From: Escherichia phage vB_EcoP_PE006
Sequence record: OQ938541.1
Direction: 5' to 3' (one strand)
Length of the DNA stretch: 64,000 bases
The notes below the pieces were generated by a model. It did no database searches. It saw only the letters and a program-made list of their open reading frames with translations, and was not told the origin of the DNA. The stretch's first letter is position 1; every line of letters begins with the position of its first letter. Shown here piece after piece: positions 1,417 through 12,175 of this stretch. The translations under genes and the position numbers were made by a program.

Positions 1417-2325
1417 TTATGCTGCCTGACGTGCCGCCATAATCTCAGCTGCCTTGCGCAATACTTCTTCTTCTTCTGCTTTCGCAGCTTGTTCGGTACG
1501 GGTAGCAACCGTTGAAGAGATACGACCGCGCAGACTTTCTAACTTCTCCTGAATAGCCGCAATAGTCTTTTCCATTTCATCAGCGTATGAATCGAGTGAT
1601 TCTAATTCCTTGCTTGATGCGTTCATCAGATAATCGTCTGAGATCGCTACAGTTGAAGCCGTGACTTTCTTGATGAGTGAATCAAAGGACTTTTTAACTT
1701 TCCCCACGTCTTCACTTAAGGCGATAGTGTTGTCACTGGTAGCGCCATTGCGCTCATCAGCCAATAATTTGGCTTCAATACGGATTGCATTCAATCGTTC
1801 GACCAAAGCGTAAACATCTTGGTTAAAATCTTCCTTGTTTTTCGCCGGGATTTGCAGATGTGCCGCCACGTTGTCATTGCAACCCTTGTAGAAGTTAGGG
1901 TTATCGACTTCAATTTCACGGCCTAAAGCAAAGTTTTCGAAAGCATTTGACCAGCGAGCGCGGTTTTGTTCCATTTTGGCCTTAATTTGCGCTTCTTTCG
2001 CATCTTCTTTCGCTTTCGCTTCACCTTCCAGATTAATCCACTTTTTACGACCGTTTGCCGCATCAGTGTTAAACTTGATGGGAGTTAAGAAAGTAATTGC
2101 AGTGGCGATCACATCCATATCGCGGAAACGTTCAGTTAACAGAAAATCGACTGCCGACTGCAATACGTCCAGCTTTTTACCGTTACTGCGGAAGTGCTGC
2201 AAGTGCCCTAACAGAAAATTAGAAACATCTTGCTTAATCGCCGCGTTATTGCTACGAATGTTGTTAGCCAGTGCGTTAAAACCAGATTCTTTTACCAGAT
2301 TAAAAATTTTAGCCATGATATTCAC
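1417..2325 (-). CDS. hypothetical protein (302 aa)
   Basis: Long ORF with AGGTGA Shine-Dalgarno about 5 nt upstream of the ATG; Ala/Glu-rich helical C-terminus; no catalytic motif recognised. Confidence 0.6.
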   Translation of the reverse strand: MNIMAKIFNLVKESGFNALANNIRSNNAAIKQDVSNFLLGHLQHFRSNGKKLDVLQSAVDFLLTERFRDMDVIATAITFLTPIKFNTDAANGRKKWINLEGEAKAKEDAKEAQIKAKMEQNRARWSNAFENFALGREIEVDNPNFYKGCNDNVAAHLQIPAKNKEDFNQDVYALVERLNAIRIEAKLLADERNGATSDNTIALSEDVGKVKKSFDSLIKKVTASTVAISDDYLMNASSKELESLDSYADEMEKTIAAIQEKLESLRGRISSTVATRTEQAAKAEEEEVLRKAAEIMAARQAA

Positions 2326-3139
2326 CTTTCAATTGTAAGGGCACTATGCCCCGCTCTCTATGAGCTTTTTAAGTCGCCATTGACTTATCAATAAACACTC
2401 ATTGTTAAGTAATTATTGATAAGTGGGGCGGTCTTATCAGGAGTTAACCTTGCCGCCCCCTTATCTGTGATGTTTCATCTGGTATCTTTAATTAGTCGCT
2501 ATAAACGAAGCCGACCTGATAGCGATGATCAATCATCACAATAAGGCTATGCGTCCGACACTATTTAATTACATTGCTGTAACCGTCGGCAATATCGTTT
2601 ACTTTGTTTTCGCTCCCGCTTATCCTTTGTGCCAACTCCTAACCGCTAACCATCGCCCACTACGGGAGGTTATTGCGGAAAGAGATCATTGACCGCCTAA
2701 TATTCCGGCGTTTTATATCTTTCGGCGGGTTTACTACATAACCCGACTATGTACTTCCGTCATAAGACGAATCTCAAGCCGTTCACATCGTAAACGTTCG
2801 CATTAAACCTTATTGTTAAATAGCAATTTGCCACTTTTTAACCACTCCCCGCCGCTCTCAATTGAGCGTTAATTCGTCGGGATTGCCTACCCTGATTAAC
2901 TTCTTTCACTGTAGCACCGTGTTAGCGATGGCCGCCGCTACCCTTTAACCGTGGGCGATTAGTTTAAGCCGTTGCGTGTACTCAATGAATCCGTCTAACA
3001 GTGGTGACGTTTCCAGTTAAGGGATTGTAAGACTGTTTACCCTGATAGTTTAGGGGCCTTACACCGTTTTATCTGGTATGCTGTCCGATGGTTATTATCT
3101 TCCAGCATATGCAACCGATATATGGGAATGTTTAAATTA

Positions 3140-3967
3140 TTAAAGAGCGGTAAATCTGTCAGCGTGCTTTCTCACGCTACGCAACTGTTAGCCGTTGTTA
3201 CGCTTTTCACTGAAGCGGTGATTTGCTTAAGTGTGCTCATTATGGACCATGATGTTTTTGCTGTCAACCGCTTTTTTAATCTTTTTCGTCGTTCCCGCTA
3301 TTGGGAGGATATATCAACCAGCTTTATTTGATTGAAGATTAAGCGATGAGGCTAAAATCATGATTCACATTGTTAAAGAGCGGTTACTGCATTTACAGCT
3401 TAACACATCGTGTTAGCTTGTCAATCTCTTTTTTATCATCTTCTTTTATTCTTTTCCCTTATCTCGCGTGAATCTATGCGAAAGGGCAAGATGATAAATT
3501 TTTAAAGAGCGGGATGTTTCACGTCATCGCTGACTTAAGCTCATTATAGGTTAGGCTTTCCAGTTGTCAAATACTTTTTCAAGTATTTTTCACTTTCTAG
3601 CCTGATTTTTAAAGAGCGTTTAAAGCTGTATGGCTCCCATAACACCATTTGATAGTCAGATAACCTGCGACTATTCCGGGGCATGGTATCCGCCTGCCTG
3701 CGTCTGACTTGCTTCACTCACTAGGGAGTTACTTGAGCGGTCATCTTGTCTTTCTAAGCTCATTATAGTTCAGGCTTTCCAGCTGTCAAACACTTTTTCA
3801 AGTATTTTTCACTTTCTAGCCTGATTTTTAAAGAGCGGGGCAATTTCTTGCCTTGTATGTTTTACATCGTACCCGATGAAAATCAGTATACGCCAGCTTT
3901 CACGAAGTGCAATAGGGTAAGGCAAATTATTTTAAACTTTTTCACTATGGGGAAGATAAAAGAGCGG
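3140..3967. repeat. six dispersed copies of an 11-bp motif TTAAAGAGCGG (one or two 1-nt variants)
   Basis: Copies near 3140, 3373, 3502, 3609, 3828 and 3957, all in one orientation, in a region with no convincing ORF. Confidence 0.6.
3541..3837. repeat. pair of near-identical ~80-bp direct repeats, each ending in the TTAAAGAGCG motif
   Basis: aagctcattatag...ggctttccag(t/c)tgtcaaa(t/c)actttttcaagtatttttcactttctagcctgatttttaaagagcg occurs at about 3541-3618 and 3760-3837. Confidence 0.6.
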
Positions 3968-4067
3968 GCGCACGTGATACATCAAAGGAAACGGCTTGTA
4001 AAGCGATAAAAAGCGGCCTAAAACGCGCTACAGCGAACTAAAAGGGAGTAAGGTATACAATCACCTT

Positions 4068-4096
4068 AGAAAAGAAAAAAGCCTCATGGCGAGGCT
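4068..4096 (-). terminator. candidate rho-independent terminator (minus-strand sense)
   Basis: AGCCTC / GAGGCT stem with a 5-nt loop, followed on the minus-strand transcript by a U-run. Confidence 0.45.
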
Positions 4097-4395
4097 TTCA
4101 GGAGGCTTTAAAACATCAGATAGATTATGACCATAGGCATGACTACGGCACAATAAAGGAGAAAGATTAGTCCTATAGATTTAAGCATTACCCTAAACCG
4201 ATCTCAATTAGTTTAAGAATATCGAAAGCGGCAACAATCAGTAAATAGTTTAAAGAAACGAAGCCAATGACAAACAAAAACAGAAAGAACACAACCGGAC
4301 ACCTAAAAAACGTAAGAATAAAGCATATCAGCGACGAACAACGCCACTGCAACAACGAATAAGCAACGCAAAAAATAATCATGAATCATTAATTG

Positions 4396-4656
4396 CTACC
4401 CTTGCCAAAAAAATGCTACTCTAATCTGTTCCACTTCTTCCAGCGACAACAAAATCCCACGTTGCGCCAAATACTGACCAACTATCTGTAATCTTTCTAG
4501 AAGAGCGATAGCGGGGAAATCGATCGCATTAATATTATTACCTACAATAAACAAGATTAAGCACTTGTCAGAATCGTCAGTATATGAGAAATCGATCTCA
4601 CCATAATTATGAGATGGTATAGTAAAGCTGTATTCTTTATTCATTTTTATCACCAT
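4396..4656 (-). CDS. hypothetical protein (86 aa)
   Basis: Third ORF of a compact three-gene minus-strand cassette with 7-nt overlap. Confidence 0.4.
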   Translation of the reverse strand: MVIKMNKEYSFTIPSHNYGEIDFSYTDDSDKCLILFIVGNNINAIDFPAIALLERLQIVGQYLAQRGILLSLEEVEQIRVAFFWQG

Positions 4657-4901
4657 TTTGGCAGATCACAATCAAGAAGACCGGCAAGCGACAAATTACC
4701 GTCAACATAAATCGAACGGAAGTCATCGCGGTTAATATCAATGCGCACCAATTGGAGCCACCTTTTGGCCTCGCTAAAACTCATGGAACAAAAGGCAACG
4801 GTAGGCAGTATTACGTCACCTTCACGCAAGCCGAACGCAATAAAAGTATCACAAACAAAACAAGAAACACCGCTGGATAGTTTGATCACTTTGTTACTCA
4901 T
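4650..4901 (-). CDS. hypothetical protein (83 aa)
   Basis: Middle ORF of the cassette. Confidence 0.4.
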   Translation of the reverse strand: MSNKVIKLSSGVSCFVCDTFIAFGLREGDVILPTVAFCSMSFSEAKRWLQLVRIDINRDDFRSIYVDGNLSLAGLLDCDLPKW

Positions 4902-4928
4902 TTTTTGTTACTCCTGAAAATTGGTTAT

Positions 4929-5420
4929 TTACTTACTGGCCTTGATGCAGTTGGCTAAATTAATGTGAACGGTATAAACAGCGTTATCAGCGTTATTGTA
5001 AACAGTAGTCGCAATCATCGACTGATTAACCGGGCCATAACTCACTAGATTGGTGACAGCTTTAACGTCTTTGTAACGTTGTACAGTGCCATACGTCACC
5101 ATATCCGCATCGTTATCAGTACGCTTGAGAACTAGATCACTGTTAGGCTGATTATCTAGTGTTTTGGTACTAACGACCAGACCATCACGGGAAACGTTAC
5201 TAAATTTAACCTTTAAAACGACCTGATTGGTGTCACTATCAGCACCGTTGCAAATCATCCAACCTTTATTGATGGAACTAACGAAGACACTAGCCGCATC
5301 AGTTGCGGAAGTAGGGCCAGCGATAGCCTTGTCAGAAAGAGATGTGACCAGTGCACTAACACCGATCGCGGCGACTAGCGCATAACTTGCCAGATTAATC
5401 ATCTGCATCGGTTTAGTCAT
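4929..5420 (-). CDS. predicted secreted protein (N-terminal signal peptide)
   Basis: MTKPMQMINLASYALVAAIGVSALVTSLS...AIAG looks like a Sec signal peptide; rest is Ser/Thr/Asn/Val-rich. Confidence 0.5.
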   Translation of the reverse strand: MTKPMQMINLASYALVAAIGVSALVTSLSDKAIAGPTSATDAASVFVSSINKGWMICNGADSDTNQVVLKVKFSNVSRDGLVVSTKTLDNQPNSDLVLKRTDNDADMVTYGTVQRYKDVKAVTNLVSYGPVNQSMIATTVYNNADNAVYTVHINLANCIKASK

Positions 5421-5769
5421 TTGTGAAGCCTCATTGATATGTAATAGATAGGGATATAATAGGACACGCTTTCTTACATTGCAATCATCTTTCTAACTTT
5501 CTTTCTTTCTACTAAAAGTAGCGCCATTAAACTTACTAGGCTTATTTCTCGGGCTTAACTTGCTATCAGTGAACGACTCGACTACTTCACAAACAACCAA
5601 AACAAGTAAAGGAAACACCACAGCCATTGCCATCATTATTAAGATAATCATTTCTATCACTCCAATCACTCAATCAATAGGCTTCAATTTACTACTACTT
5701 AACAAGGAAGACAAGCGACCACGGATGTAACGCTATCGCTACGGGTAACAGACCAACATACCAGGACGA

Positions 5770-6186
5770 ACGGGGAACAAACATCCGCATAACAGACCAC
5801 GGGGAAACATAGCAAGATAATGCGGTAATAATATACCACTTAAATAATTGTATAACTCAAACATCAAAGATCATTCGCTACGCTCATGCACGCTGAAAAA
5901 GAAAGTAATAAAAGAAATAATAACATACATCAATCATTATCCACTTAATTAATACATACATCATTATTGCACTCATAATCATTACCATTGAAACTATTAT
6001 CAACGTAACTATGGGGAGCTGCGACTGTTACATGACGGTATTATATCGCCTTAAACTGATCGTTATACAGACCTTTATACAGTGCTAGCCTTTCTCCTAC
6101 TCTTTAAAGGGGAACTAAATAAACGGGTAGGTAATGAATAGGATGGTATACACGGGGAAAGAATAACGGGGAGTAGGCACGGGGAA
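5770..6186. repeat. iteron-like ACGGGGAA repeats (5 copies)
   Basis: ACGGGGA(A/G) at about 5770, 5799, 6152, 6166 and 6179 in non-coding DNA. Confidence 0.5.
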
Positions 6187-6572
6187 AAGCTGGAACGTTG
6201 ATAGGGATGTAAAGGCATTGCCAATAACCATTTTTTATTTGAGGACTCCCCCTTTTTGAGAAACACGCTGCGAGCGCCTAGCCCCATTCGGTCAAATCAG
6301 AATTTTAAACAGATGTATATAAGCTTAAGAGAGAACTTAATGAATCTAATTAAAGTATTTAGACGGATGAAGTGTAAGCACAATTACTATCTTCTTCGTA
6401 AAGCTTACGGGGATGAAAGAATACATGGTCTCTACTTATCAACATGGAAGTGTAGGGAATGTGGTAAGTTGAGATTCAGTACGTGGGTGGATAAGCCTTA
6501 ATGGAAATAATCTTTTGGTTAGTAATAGTCTTCTGTTTATTCATCTGCTTCTCTATAGCAAGGTGTATCAAG

Positions 6573-6708
6573 TATGACTAATGACATGGCCTTAACATGA
6601 GGGTGCCTTTATGACATGCCCTTTACTTCAGCGTACACGGGTTGTTGGTATGAGGTAGTCATCTTTGATGACGTGGCCTTTACGGGTTAGATATGACTAG
6701 CCCTTTAT
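6573..6708. repeat. iteron-like repeats ATGAC(A/G/T)(T/A)G(G/C)CCTTTA(C/T) (4 copies)
   Basis: Copies at about 6581, 6611, 6667 and 6693, just upstream of the first plus-strand genes. Confidence 0.5.
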
Positions 6709-6828
6709 ACTTTTATTCAGAGGATAGAATATGAAGTTTTTAAAAGAACTACACTCCTTGATTTATAAGGACATAGTGTACTCAGTATCCCGCAATGCAT
6801 GGTTCTACCAAAAAGGTGGCAACGGTGA

Positions 6829-8329: not shown

Positions 8330-9871
8330 ATGTCATTAGATAAACAAATTTATGAAGCTCTAACTGGTAACAATCTTAGTGTAGAGGAAAAGAAAGCACT
8401 ATTGAATATGTTGAAAGAGCGTGACCAATGGAGGAAGTATAATAGGATTTTGTCTTTCAAGGCGTATGACTTCCAAAAGAAATTTTATGCAGCAGGATTG
8501 AAGCATCGCTTTAGATTCTTGTGTGCAGCGAACCGTGTTGGTAAATCTTATAGCGAGGCATACGAGTTTGCTTGTCATGTCACAGGTCGCTACCCAACTT
8601 GGTGGACAGGATATAAATTTAAAAGACCTATCTTAGCATGGGCAGTTGGTATTACAGGGGATTCCACAAGGAAGGTATTGCAAAAGGAATTGTTTGGTAC
8701 ACCTATCGGAAAGGATACAAATTTATTAGGGACAGGTGTCATTCCTCGTGATGCTATCGTCATTGATACGATAGAACGAGATGGTAACAAACTTCAAATC
8801 GTACAAATCAAACATCAAAATGAGAGAGGAGAGTTTGACGGTTTAAGTACATTAGAATTCCGTTCAACCCAACAGGGTGAACACACATTGATGGGTGCAA
8901 CAGTTGACTACATTTGGTTAGACGAAGAAGATCCATATGAGTCTATGGCTATATTCGCACAATGCGTCACACGTACACTCACAACTAAAGGTCTAGTTAC
9001 AATTACAGCTACACCAGAGAACGGTTTAACTGAACTGGTAGATAAATTTATGAAAGGTGAAGGGGATGAGAGCACAGGTTCTCTTTATTTCCAGAATGCT
9101 TCTTGGTGGGATGCTCATGCAGACCTAGGTGGACACATCACTGACCAAGATATAAAAGATATGACTGAAGGTATTCCAGCATGGCAGTTAGAGATGCGTT
9201 CAAAAGGTATGCCATTGTTAGGAAGTGGTTTGATATATGATGTATCGGATGACACAATTAAATGTGAACCATTCGAAATTCCTGATACGTGGAAACGTGT
9301 CTGTGCAATTGATATTGGTATTGATCACCCAACTGCTGCTGTTTGGACAGCTTACGACGCAAACACGGATACTATCTATGTTTACGACTCATATAAAGAA
9401 GGTGGCTTTACTCCAGTGTATCATGCTCCAGCTATTAATGGTCGTGGTCAGTGGATTCCTGTCATCCTACCGCATGATGCGGACAATACTGAGAAAGGTA
9501 GTGGCTCATCTGTTGCTCAATTCTATAAGAATGCAGGAGTTAACGTACAGAGTGAGACCTTCTACAACAAAATTGGAATGGATGGTAAAAAGAACTTCTT
9601 TGTAGAACCGGGAATCACAGATATCCGAGAAAGAATGATGAGTGGACGCTTTAAAGTCTTTAACACAGCCGCTAACGCTAAGCTATTCGAAGAGAAAGCT
9701 AGATATCATCGTAAGGTTGGTAAGATTATTAAAGAACATGATGACTTAATGGATGCAATGCGCTATTCAGCGTGCTCTGTTACACATCGTGGTCGCTCTA
9801 AGCATGATGTTAGCTACGGAAGCGCTTCTTTGTATGAGGCAAACGTAAGCAGATGGAATCAGAGCTACTAA
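8330..9871 (+). CDS. terL: terminase large subunit
   Basis: 513 aa with N-terminal Walker-A-like AANRVGKS, acidic Walker-B-like segment (YIWLDEED) and a C-terminal nuclease-like region; sits directly before the portal gene. Confidence 0.85.
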   Translation: MSLDKQIYEALTGNNLSVEEKKALLNMLKERDQWRKYNRILSFKAYDFQKKFYAAGLKHRFRFLCAANRVGKSYSEAYEFACHVTGRYPTWWTGYKFKRPILAWAVGITGDSTRKVLQKELFGTPIGKDTNLLGTGVIPRDAIVIDTIERDGNKLQIVQIKHQNERGEFDGLSTLEFRSTQQGEHTLMGATVDYIWLDEEDPYESMAIFAQCVTRTLTTKGLVTITATPENGLTELVDKFMKGEGDESTGSLYFQNASWWDAHADLGGHITDQDIKDMTEGIPAWQLEMRSKGMPLLGSGLIYDVSDDTIKCEPFEIPDTWKRVCAIDIGIDHPTAAVWTAYDANTDTIYVYDSYKEGGFTPVYHAPAINGRGQWIPVILPHDADNTEKGSGSSVAQFYKNAGVNVQSETFYNKIGMDGKKNFFVEPGITDIRERMMSGRFKVFNTAANAKLFEEKARYHRKVGKIIKEHDDLMDAMRYSACSVTHRGRSKHDVSYGSASLYEANVSRWNQSY

Positions 9872-9931: not shown

Positions 9932-12175
9932 ATGGCTAAGCAAAAATATAGTGAAGAGGTGTTGGACGAGTTACGTGTTGACCTTCAACGTCGTTTTAAT
10001 TACGCTCAAGGTTACGTTGACATGGCTGTTAAGGGCTATGCTCGTGAAGCTTGGGAATATTTCTATGGTAACTTACCTGCACCAGTAACTGCTGGCAGCT
10101 CTAGTTGGGTAGATCGTACTGTTTGGGAATCTGTTAACGGTACACTGCAAGATATTATTAACGTATTCTGTTCTGGTGATGAAGCGGTTACTTTCGTAGC
10201 TGATAACCAACAGGATTCTGATGCTGCTGATGTAGCAACTAAATTAGTTAACCAAATCCTTCTGCGTGATAATCCGGGATACAATATTATCTCCTCTGCT
10301 GCACAAGAATGTCTGGTTACTCGTAACTCTTTTATTAAATATTATTGGGATGAGCACACTTCTACTCAAACTGAAGAAGCTGAAGGTGTACCACCGGAAG
10401 CATTGGCTGCATATGTTCAGGGATTAGAAGCTGGTGGACTCAAGAATCTGGAAATCTTCACTGAAGAAAATGAAGATGGTACAGTTGATGTTAAAGTCAC
10501 TTATGAACAAACTGTTAAACGTGTGAAAGTTGAATATGTTCCTTCAGAGCAAATCTTTGTTGATGAACATGCTACCTCTTTTGCAGATGCACAATATTTC
10601 TGTCATCGTGTACGTCGTTCTAAAGAAGATCTGGTTGCTATGGGCTTCCCTAAAGATGAGATTGAAGCATTTAATGACTGGACAGACACGATGGATACCA
10701 CTCAATCTACAGTTGCTTGGTCTCGTACTGACTGGCGTCAGGACATTGATGCTGACATTGGTACAGATACTGAAGATATTGCTACTATGGTTTGGGTTTA
10801 TGAGCACTACATCCGTACTGGTGTTCTAGATAAGAATAAAGAATCTAAACTCTATCAGGTTATTCAAGCTGGTGAGCATATCCTTCACACTGAAGAAGTA
10901 ACTCACATTCCGTTTGTAACCTTCTGTCCGTATCCGATTCCGGGTTCCTTCTACGGTCAATCAGTCTATGACATTACGAAAGATATTCAGGATTTACGTA
11001 CCGCGTTAGTTCGTGGTTATATTGATAACGTCAACAATGCTAACTATGGTCGATACAAAGCTCTTGTTGGTGCATACGATCGTCGCTCTCTGCTTGATAA
11101 CCGTCCCGGTGGAGTGGTTGAAATGGAACGTCAGGACGCTATCGACCTGTTCCCATACCATAACCTACCTCAAGGTATTGACGGCCTCCTAGGTATGTCT
11201 GAGGAGCTTAAAGAGACACGTACCGGTGTAACTAAACTTGGCATGGGTATCAACCCTGATGTGTTTAAGAATGACAACGCTTATGCAACCGTAGGCTTGA
11301 TGATGAATGCTGCACAGAACCGTCTCCGTATGGTATGTCGTAACATTGCTCACAATGGTATGGTTGAATTGATGCGTGGTATTTACAGCCTTATCAGAGA
11401 AAACGGTGAAGTTCCTATTGAGGTACAAACCCCTCGTGGTATGGTTCAGGTAAATCCGAAACAATTACCAGCTCGTCACAATCTTCAAGTAGTTGTAGCT
11501 ATCTCTCCTAATGAGAAAGCAGAACGTGCACAGAAACTGATTAGCTTGAAACAGCTGATTGCAGCAGATGCACAGTTAGCACCTCTCTTCGGTTTGGAGC
11601 AAGACCGTTACATGACTGCACAGATCTTTGAGTTGATGGGTATTAAGGACACTCATAAATACTTACTGCCTCTGGAACAGTATCAGCCTCCTGAGCCGTC
11701 TCCGATGGAAATCCTCCAGCTCGAGATGACTAAAGCGCAGGTTGAGAACGTACAGGCTTCTTCTCAGAAGATGATTGCTGATGCATTCGACCAGCGTGAA
11801 CGTACTACATTCGAACAGCAGAAAGCTGCGGATGAATTAAGTCTGCGTCAGGAAGAGTTGCAGTTCAAGCAAGAAAATGCAGCAGATGCTATGACTCTGG
11901 AAAACCGTAAAGAAGATAACAATGCAACTCTGGAACAAGCTAAGCACAAGTTAGCTCTTATGCAACAGCAGGTCCGTCAGTATGAGTCTGTACTGAAAGA
12001 ATTGCAGATGGTTATGGAGCATCAGGTTGACCAAGAGAAGATTGTTCAGCAAACTCGTGTTCAGGATAAAACTTTGGAACTCCAGAAGAAAGAAGCAAAT
12101 GTAACTAAGAAAGAGCAACAAGCTTCTCTCAAAGATTCACGGATTCCAGGCAAACGTCTTGGAAGTAAAAAGTAA
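9932..12175 (+). CDS. portal protein
   Basis: 747 aa directly after the terminase, with a C-terminal Glu/Gln-rich coiled-coil tail; assigned by size, position and composition. Confidence 0.75.
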   Translation: MAKQKYSEEVLDELRVDLQRRFNYAQGYVDMAVKGYAREAWEYFYGNLPAPVTAGSSSWVDRTVWESVNGTLQDIINVFCSGDEAVTFVADNQQDSDAADVATKLVNQILLRDNPGYNIISSAAQECLVTRNSFIKYYWDEHTSTQTEEAEGVPPEALAAYVQGLEAGGLKNLEIFTEENEDGTVDVKVTYEQTVKRVKVEYVPSEQIFVDEHATSFADAQYFCHRVRRSKEDLVAMGFPKDEIEAFNDWTDTMDTTQSTVAWSRTDWRQDIDADIGTDTEDIATMVWVYEHYIRTGVLDKNKESKLYQVIQAGEHILHTEEVTHIPFVTFCPYPIPGSFYGQSVYDITKDIQDLRTALVRGYIDNVNNANYGRYKALVGAYDRRSLLDNRPGGVVEMERQDAIDLFPYHNLPQGIDGLLGMSEELKETRTGVTKLGMGINPDVFKNDNAYATVGLMMNAAQNRLRMVCRNIAHNGMVELMRGIYSLIRENGEVPIEVQTPRGMVQVNPKQLPARHNLQVVVAISPNEKAERAQKLISLKQLIAADAQLAPLFGLEQDRYMTAQIFELMGIKDTHKYLLPLEQYQPPEPSPMEILQLEMTKAQVENVQASSQKMIADAFDQRERTTFEQQKAADELSLRQEELQFKQENAADAMTLENRKEDNNATLEQAKHKLALMQQQVRQYESVLKELQMVMEHQVDQEKIVQQTRVQDKTLELQKKEANVTKKEQQASLKDSRIPGKRLGSKK

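Follow-up and report, generated by a model that had tools for sequence, protein, structure and literature searches.

We describe here a compact group of minus-strand genes in Escherichia phage vB_EcoP_PE006, found in a stretch of 64,000 nucleotides (nt) of sequence record OQ938541.1 that is hereafter called the window. Four genes, numbered 0 to 3 in the order in which they are read leftwards, lie between promoter-like elements and an intrinsic terminator, next to a sequence homologous to the terminal repeat of phage phiEco32. These genes and elements, together called the unit, and the adjoining repeat are as follows (aa, amino acids; pI, isoelectric point; ORF, open reading frame; dN/dS, ratio of nonsynonymous to synonymous substitution rates).

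5493–5651, minus strand: gene 0, 52 aa, with one transmembrane helix at the N-terminus and a basic tail at the C-terminus (phrog_7482, E 3e-14)
4929–5420, minus strand: gene 1, 163 aa, the core gene of the unit (ORF list, PHROG family, dN/dS)
4650–4901, minus strand: gene 2, 83 aa, acidic (pI 5.1), an orphan protein homologous to phiEco32 gp127
4396–4644, minus strand: gene 3, 82 aa (ATG 4644), acidic (pI 4.4), an orphan protein homologous to phiEco32 gp126 (phrog_16976)
5822–5849, minus strand: 28-nt element AATTATTTAAGTGGTATATTATTACCGC, which includes an extended -10 (TGGTATATT) and may be the promoter of gene 0 and the rest of the unit
5456–5484, minus strand: sigma70-like candidate promoter TTGCAA-17-TATTAT between gene 0 and gene 1 (promoter scan)
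4065–4099, minus strand: intrinsic terminator closing the unit (terminator scan; conserved in 8 related loci)
6087–6279, no strand: homologue of the 193-bp direct terminal repeat of phiEco32, present in a single copy (alignment of the phiEco32 ends)

The unit lies at the right genome end

Region 3900–6100 of the window matches 84 phage records, nearly all of them Escherichia phages of the genus Kuravirus (Gordonclarkvirinae), the closest being 172-1 (92%) and NJ01 (88%); the part occupied by the unit is 77–92% identical to 172-1, NJ01 and other relatives. The gene order of the unit matches that of phiEco32 genes 125–128. Protein identity amounts to 85% between gene 1 and the C-terminal portion of gp128, to 57% between gene 2 and gp127, and to 48% between gene 3 and gp126.

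Positions 1–193 of phiEco32 are identical to its last 193 bases, which constitute a direct terminal repeat. The left end of phiEco32 aligns from window position 6087 and its right end aligns up to position 6279. Because both ends align across 6087–6279, the window is a circularly permuted assembly that carries one copy of the terminal repeat, and by this alignment the genome would begin at about 6087 on the left and finish at about 6279 on the right. The starts of gene 0 and gene 1 are 628 and 859 nt from the inferred right end, and both genes read inward on the minus strand. The unit thus consists of the first genes inside the right genome end, and its phiEco32 homologues 125–128 are the last genes of the phiEco32 record. 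On the plus strand, beyond the unit, the large terminase gene (8330–9871) is followed by the portal gene (9932–12175).

In phiEco32 (genes 125–128) and SU10 (CDS121–125), an early unit has been described that is preceded by a single promoter and closed by a terminator, beyond which the spacer carries three sigma70 promoters (PMC4281155). The SU10 homologues were classed as early by analogy and promoter prediction, and the expression class of the phiEco32 genes is that given in the summary of the SU10 paper (PMC4281155). Genes SU7_115–118 are annotated in the same way, with a promoter, four genes and a terminator. Its identity and architecture make it very likely that the unit is the counterpart, in this phage, of the right-terminal early unit known from phiEco32-like phages.

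The heptamer TCCCCGT occurs six times in the 64-kb window, and all six copies cluster on the minus strand in or beside the terminal-repeat homologue (5770–6413), three of them within 6152–6185, two at 5770–5805 and one at 6407. These copies may be packaging or end-recognition sites.

Coding status of the four genes

Pairwise Nei–Gojobori comparisons with up to 15 relatives gave dN/dS values of 0.12–0.21 for gene 1, 0.06–0.40 for gene 2 and 0.19–0.52 for gene 3, ranges that show purifying selection and hence that the three genes are coding. For gene 0 the value was about 0.08 with three relatives and 0.48 with NJ01, so that all four genes are under purifying selection. Genes 1, 2 and 3 are each assigned to a PHROG family and were also called by an independent gene caller on metagenomic Logan contig L020, where the gene 1 protein is identical to that of the window at about 92% DNA identity; gene 0 is called there as a 52-aa gene.

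Genes 1 and 2 have good ribosome-binding sites (GAGG and AGGAG, respectively), and gene 0 has a GGAG 8 nt before its ATG. Gene 3 has two possible starts: ATG 4644 is preceded five bases upstream by GGTGA, and ATG 4656, which would extend the protein to 86 aa (4396–4656), has no ribosome-binding site. With ATG 4656 as the start, genes 2 and 3 overlap by 7 nt, and with ATG 4644 they are separated by 5 nt; since the latter start has the better ribosome-binding site, a 5-nt gap is probable. The spacing between genes 1 and 2 is 27 nt.

An earlier note on this DNA had proposed three compactly overlapped genes (4929–5420, 4650–4901 and 4396–4656), isolated within a non-coding region and followed by their own terminator at about 4068–4096. 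The three ORFs are borne out by dN/dS, by their PHROGs and by the independent calls on contig L020, and the terminator is placed at 4099–4065, where it is conserved in the 8 related loci. Overlap applies at most to genes 2 and 3, whereas genes 1 and 2 are separate, and a count of three overlooks gene 0 upstream. There is indeed non-coding DNA on both sides, but the genes are better described as a right-terminal transcription unit adjoining the terminal repeat than as an isolated group.

Neither gene 2 nor gene 3 encodes a hydrophobic segment, and no relatives of them were found outside these phages; the gene 2 product is presumably cytoplasmic. A sequence search of the PDB gave no match for either protein, and the model of gene 2 (predicted local distance difference test score, pLDDT, 84) had no significant structural neighbour. 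Gene 2 is labelled as a DNA polymerase in GenBank, a label that we reject, as no polymerase domain or fold was found. The "polymerase / DNA polymerase B region" wording carried by the gene 2 family comes from phrog_14176 and is unsupported.

Gene 1 encodes a probable membrane-anchored barrel

The gene 1 protein has a short N-terminus (MTKPMQM, followed by INLASYALVAAIGVSALVTSL), a conserved hydrophobic helix at residues 8–28, and then a predicted helix and an 8-stranded beta-barrel. The INLASYALVAAIGVSALVTSL segment is invariant or nearly so across clades that share only 44% identity elsewhere in the protein, and the pattern NLASYxLxxxIGxS is invariant between clades at that same 44% identity. 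Since the codons of the helix differ synonymously between clades (AGT/TCT, CTG/CTA, GCA/GCG/GCT), the constraint acts at the protein level. In relatives, the gp125-like secreted protein encoded nearby has a signal peptide that differs completely between the same clades. In the 286–290-aa forms of gene 1 found in phiEco32, SU10, EP335 and Bas87, the helix is internal, being placed after a 125-aa domain and a Lys-rich stretch.

The earlier note had read a clear signal peptide here. What stands of this is a hydrophobic N-terminus, with Lys3 present and with candidate cleavage sites that have plausible small residues at -3 and -1 (SLS-D or AIA-G, and VQA-K in the second clade, the hyphen marking the cut). 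The hydrophobic stretch of 18–21 residues, however, exceeds the 7–15 residues of a usual signal-peptide core and hardly varies within the family, which makes cleavage uncertain, and the loose constraint expected of a Sec-type signal peptide is not seen in this segment. Because the helix is invariant, and internal in the longer forms, a retained N-in, C-out anchor is favoured over a cleaved signal peptide; as far as can be judged from the sequence, the segment would be a lasting membrane anchor and not a disposable signal, the small -3/-1 residues leaving cleavage possible. Small residues recur at a spacing of four in the helix NLASYALVAAIGVSA, a pattern that suggests helix–helix contacts in the membrane. 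With gene 0 and its transmembrane helix also taken into account, it is quite likely that both proteins are targeted to the envelope, and the products of the unit are in this sense largely envelope-directed, in support of the earlier note.

Gly, Ala, Ser and Thr make up 48% of the N-terminal helix of gene 1, as in signal-anchor-release domains, and the protein would carry a small periplasmic domain, as does the antiholin RI of phage T4. Both points would fit a protein that regulates lysis from the periplasm, either as an antiholin like RI or in a spanin-like manner. We hold this to be highly improbable: the late and lysis genes lie far away from the unit, whose SU10 homologues are classed as early, the periplasmic domain is modelled as a beta-barrel and not as the coiled coil of an i-spanin, gene 1 has no lipobox, and there is no adjacent holin gene.

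The beta-barrel is modelled with a pLDDT of about 87, and Cys57 and Cys158 are invariant. The structural matches of the barrel share 4–15% sequence identity with it, the top ones being de novo designed barrels. Gene 1 was compared by a word-based method with 5.8 billion proteins and by a full HMMER profile with 1.84 billion representatives; both searches returned family members only, apart from weak matches to giant repetitive proteins that were treated as compositional. When all products of the unit were compared with Pfam, PHROGs, NCBIfam and PADLOC, only PHROGs without a known function or sub-threshold noise, such as PknH_C (15 bits), EF-hand_10 and Imm19, were obtained, and no anti-phage defence or counter-defence family of PADLOC, Pfam or NCBIfam was matched. 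The possibility that gene 1 and the gp125-like protein are paralogues was rejected (hhalign probability 0.1%).

Candidate promoters and terminator

The 28-nt element upstream of gene 0 is identical, at 28 of 28 bases, in 9 related loci, whichever gene follows, and we infer that it acts as a promoter. The second candidate, TTGCAA-17-TATTAT, is kept in 172-1, NJ01, MN05 and O18-011, the four relatives that share gene 0. In phiEco32, a near-consensus TTGACA-16-TATAGT is located about 50 nt upstream of gene 128. A promoter of the phiEco32 gp36 type (TAATGTATA) was also sought, and no match with one mismatch or fewer was found upstream of the unit; only an AATGTA core is present, inside the TTGCAA promoter, as expected by chance.

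The terminator is formed by a 9-bp G+C-rich stem at 4099–4077 followed by UUUUUUCUUUUCU. Its sequence reads GAAAGCCUC-GCCAU-GAGGCUUUU and then the U-tract UUCUUUUCU, and the homologous site is annotated as a terminator in SU10 and SU7.

A conserved core gene with changing neighbours

To describe distribution we used a reference set of 95 phage records whose large terminase subunit (TerL) is at least 90% identical. Homologues of gene 1 were found in 92 of about 95 Gordonclarkvirinae records, including Suseptimavirus and Nieuwekanaalvirus, down to about 44% identity. Gene 2 homologues occur in 75 of these records and gene 3 homologues in 62, the latter never exceeding 75% identity and being absent from 172-1, NJ01, MN05 and O18-011. 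Gene 0, found in 14 records, is the sole sporadic gene of the four. Gene 1 was not matched in Aeromonas, Proteus and Vibrio phages (TerL identity 56–64%) nor in phage 7-11, and the profile search of 1.84 billion representative proteins gave no homologue outside the subfamily. As its distribution is both near-universal and confined to the subfamily, gene 1 is a lineage-specific core gene around which other slots change.

The slot upstream of gene 1 is filled by gene 0, by a gene for a 108-aa lipoprotein (contig L019) or by the 125-aa domain, which is fused in frame to gene 1 in phiEco32, SU10, EP335 and Bas87; a separate family of 125 positions, phrog_15368, matches this upstream domain alone. 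On contig L019, the predicted lipoprotein (MTNGKALAILATVMLLGC..., with an LLGC lipobox) is encoded at 1845–2171, and its gene is preceded by a promoter-like site, TTGACA-17-TAAGAT.

A 73-aa gene and the gp125-like gene also come and go among relatives. The phiEco32 gp125 homologue is a 121-aa secreted protein with two invariant cysteines, and its gene is present in most relatives. Compared with contig L019, the window lacks 347 nt, with the junction between 4210 and 4209, and has lost this gene except for a remnant; the form without gp125 is found on the independent contig L020 as well. Across relatives, the unit has collected several envelope-directed products, namely the gene 0 peptide, the lipoprotein of contig L019 and the gp125-like secreted protein. 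Two products of the unit in the window would be directed to the inner membrane or periplasm, against up to four in relatives, and two would be cytoplasmic.

In EcoN5, IMEP8 and Bas94, the gene 1 unit is located about 3–5 kb further in, after homologues of genes 124–120, and sits between homologues of genes 120 and 117. The stretches concerned are 2501–4011 of locus L014 (EcoN5), 2501–4090 of L006 (IMEP8), and 1127–2343 and 6629–7054 of L022 (Bas94). Two terminators and a promoter-like site precede the relocated unit of EcoN5, and the terminus of Bas94 retains a second copy of gene 2 together with gene 0. This arrangement indicates that the unit has moved or been duplicated within the genome.

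These data bear on the proposal of the earlier note that the genes form an accessory cassette of a kind that often encodes host-interaction or exclusion functions, taken here as a horizontally acquired and dispensable moron with an exclusion function. Part of it agrees with what we see. The unit is self-contained, with its own promoter-like elements and terminator; gene 0, gene 3, the 73-aa gene, the gp125-like gene and the lipoprotein gene vary between relatives; in EcoN5, IMEP8 and Bas94 the unit has another location, where terminators and a promoter-like site delimit it; and the window phage has lost the gp125-like gene without obvious harm. The unit is nevertheless not sporadic, its genes 1, 2 and 3 being present in 92, 75 and 62 of the records, respectively, and no donor is visible for gene 1, which has no homologue outside the subfamily. 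The comparison of GC content and codon usage that had been suggested as a check speaks against a foreign origin: the GC fraction of genes 1 and 2 is 0.437, against 0.431 for long ORFs, and the codon adaptation of the unit (0.58–0.66) falls within the 0.56–0.68 of other small early genes, so that the unit resembles the phage's other small early genes. Acquisition as a moron is consequently unlikely in our estimation. Universal conservation with a structural or replication role had been named as the finding that would overturn that proposal; gene 1 is near-universal, but neither role is defined for it, and a part in exclusion or host interaction is still plausible.

The same observations bear on a second alternative, in which the unit serves the phage's own infection as a "pre-early" set at the leading end, helping DNA entry or setting up the cell in the way of the T5 first-step-transfer genes. 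A distance of 630–860 nt separates the unit from the right terminus, the unit precedes the main early promoters and is insulated from them, gene 1 is near-universal and strongly constrained, including its membrane helix, and the related phage 7-11 starts early transcription at the very right end. Against this, relocation of the unit in EcoN5, IMEP8 and Bas94 means that a position at the leading end is not required, and there is no similarity to T5 A1/A2 or another known entry protein. We judge this alternative rather improbable, and prefer to see in the unit a set of early genes that alters the host envelope.

Neighbouring features

Between gene 3 and the terminator, and downstream of the latter, the following features were found.

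4173–4209, minus strand: remnant (last 12 codons) of the gp125 homologue gene (alignment with contig L019)
4188–4382, minus strand: 64-aa hydrophobic ORF, probably not a gene (ORF list)
4329–4349, minus strand: conserved hairpin just after gene 3, with an 8-bp stem and no adjacent U-tract (terminator scan)
3789–3762, 3570–3543 and 3267–3239, minus strand: three sigma70 promoters downstream of the terminator (promoter scan and context)

The interval of about 300 nt between gene 3 and the terminator holds ORF 4188–4382 and the deletion scar, which the 3′ end of the ORF enters. We reject this ORF as a gene: it has no ribosome-binding site, belongs to no family and was not called on contig L020. 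Its frame is broken in several relatives and its dN/dS reaches about 1. Around the hairpin, which was found again in EcoN5, some 75 nt are kept in nearly all relatives, though the overlapping ORF is not maintained; the fold of the surrounding 111 nt (4290–4400) is no more stable than that of shuffled sequence (z -0.6). A scan of 2300–6800 against Rfam gave no match.

The "terminase" label carried by the family of 121-aa secreted gp125 proteins (for example, locus L004, 8732–9097) comes from phrog_13168 and is unsupported. Together with the "polymerase" label of gene 2, it is now present in dozens of Kuravirus GenBank records.

The three downstream sigma70 promoters match the consensus at 12 of 12, 12 of 12 and 11 of 12 positions. 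By sequence, the leftward early genes would be transcribed mainly from the promoters within 3239–3789. The first of these genes (1417–2325) is a homologue of phiEco32 gene 124, and between it and the three promoters there is an apparently untranslated leader (2326–3232) of about 0.9–1.4 kb. The sequence TTAAAGAGCGG occurs on the plus strand in six copies within 830 nt (3140–3967), interleaved with the three promoters and with an 83-nt direct repeat (3536–3618 and 3755–3837); 0.97 copies would be expected in the whole window, which holds 7. The sequence may act at the main early promoters, either binding a regulator or serving as a UP-like element.

Discussion

Building on the homology, anatomy, coding status of the ORFs and distribution described above, we infer promoter use, timing, topology and function as follows. 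Host sigma70 RNA polymerase would start at the extended -10 element (around 5835) and/or at TTGCAA-17-TATTAT (5484–5456), read leftwards through gene 0, gene 1, gene 2 and gene 3, and stop at the terminator (4099–4065), which would insulate the unit from the three strong early promoters downstream. Gene 0 would give a 52-aa single-pass membrane peptide. The gene 1 product is expected to be a single-pass inner-membrane, or possibly secreted, protein that exposes a disulfide-bonded 8-stranded beta-barrel in the periplasm, and genes 2 and 3 would provide small acidic cytoplasmic proteins. An early change in the envelope fits best with an insulated unit, with a fixed core surrounded by variable content, and with early proteins directed to the envelope. 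On balance, then, we favour the view of a right-terminal early unit, transcribed by the host sigma70 polymerase, that alters the envelope early in infection. Among the effects that such a change could have, blocking the entry of later phages or the damage they cause, in the manner of T4 Imm and Sp or T5 Llp, would be the most likely one; this exclusion-type function is drawn by analogy and is offered tentatively, as a possibility with the chances somewhat against it.

Several points weigh against this explanation as a whole. Gene 1 is near-universal with a dN/dS of about 0.15–0.2, a combination seen more typically in genes that a phage requires for its own cycle than in exclusion genes that it could do without. 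The fold of gene 1 is generic and gives no pointer to function. The promoter elements of the window are moderate matches only, and in the promoter scan of the region promoter-like sites were no commoner than in shuffled sequence. Finally, the literature found, which did not cover the primary phiEco32 papers, contains no transcript, topology or phenotype data for the unit and assigns no function to its products. As for a structural role, virion proteomics of SU10 identified 34 proteins, none of them from CDS121–125, and the fact that the SU10 homologues were not detected in the virion argues against it.

Two further ideas, taken jointly, are speculative and, to our mind, improbable. Gene 1 could found a new family of single-pass inner-membrane proteins, restricted to Gordonclarkvirinae, that engages a component of the host envelope through its sequence-specific helix and periplasmic barrel and may thereby block the DNA entry of competing phages or control the entry of its own. 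Genes 2 and 3, for their part, could encode restriction inhibitors, made from the first DNA that enters, that account for the resistance to restriction-modification systems reported for these phages (PMC11990801).

Kuraviruses are often isolated as therapeutic coliphages, and their early genes are almost wholly uncharacterised. Being conserved throughout the subfamily and found nowhere else, gene 1 probably marks a lineage-specific step at the host envelope. Its function would reveal how these phages handle the envelope straight after infection, be it by exclusion, protection or entry control. The unit is compact, self-contained and easily cloned or deleted, and work on it would put right the misleading annotation of "polymerase" and "terminase" in GenBank as well.

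Comparison with known systems

The unit is not novel as such, because the early unit has already been described in phiEco32 and SU10. What is new here is the evidence that gene 1 contains a membrane anchor, the prediction of its beta-barrel, the map of variable slots, the relocation or duplication in relatives and the deletion of the gp125-like gene. As far as sequence comparison goes, the plan is the one seen in phiEco32, SU10 and SU7: a unit next to the right terminal repeat, read leftwards, with a promoter, a terminator and then a spacer with three promoters. Unlike phiEco32 and SU10, the window has no gp125-like secreted protein, owing to the 347-nt deletion, lacks their 73-aa gene, and carries the gene for the 52-aa membrane peptide in place of their fused 125-aa N-terminal domain. 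It differs from 172-1 and NJ01, its closest relatives, in having gene 3.

The class I early region of T7 comprises genes of the leading end that the host RNA polymerase reads up to a terminator, and its products (Ocr, a kinase and an RNA polymerase) are cytoplasmic. The likeness lies in host-polymerase promoters less than a kilobase inward of a short direct terminal repeat, in the small early genes and in the terminator. The differences are that here the strong promoters lie after the terminator of the unit and that the products would be in part envelope-directed. As regards lipocalin/calycin-like proteins, the Cap15 barrel and the PknI sensor domain, gene 1 shares with them a fold class only, with no common motif or ligand site.

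T4 Imm, T4 Sp (spackle) and T5 Llp are early membrane, periplasmic or lipoprotein superinfection-exclusion proteins. They resemble the products of the unit, by analogy, in being small early proteins directed to the envelope and expressed from host-type promoters, and relatives of the unit carry a lipoprotein. There is, in contrast, no similarity in sequence or fold between them, and gene 1 is far more conserved in its subfamily than a typical exclusion gene.

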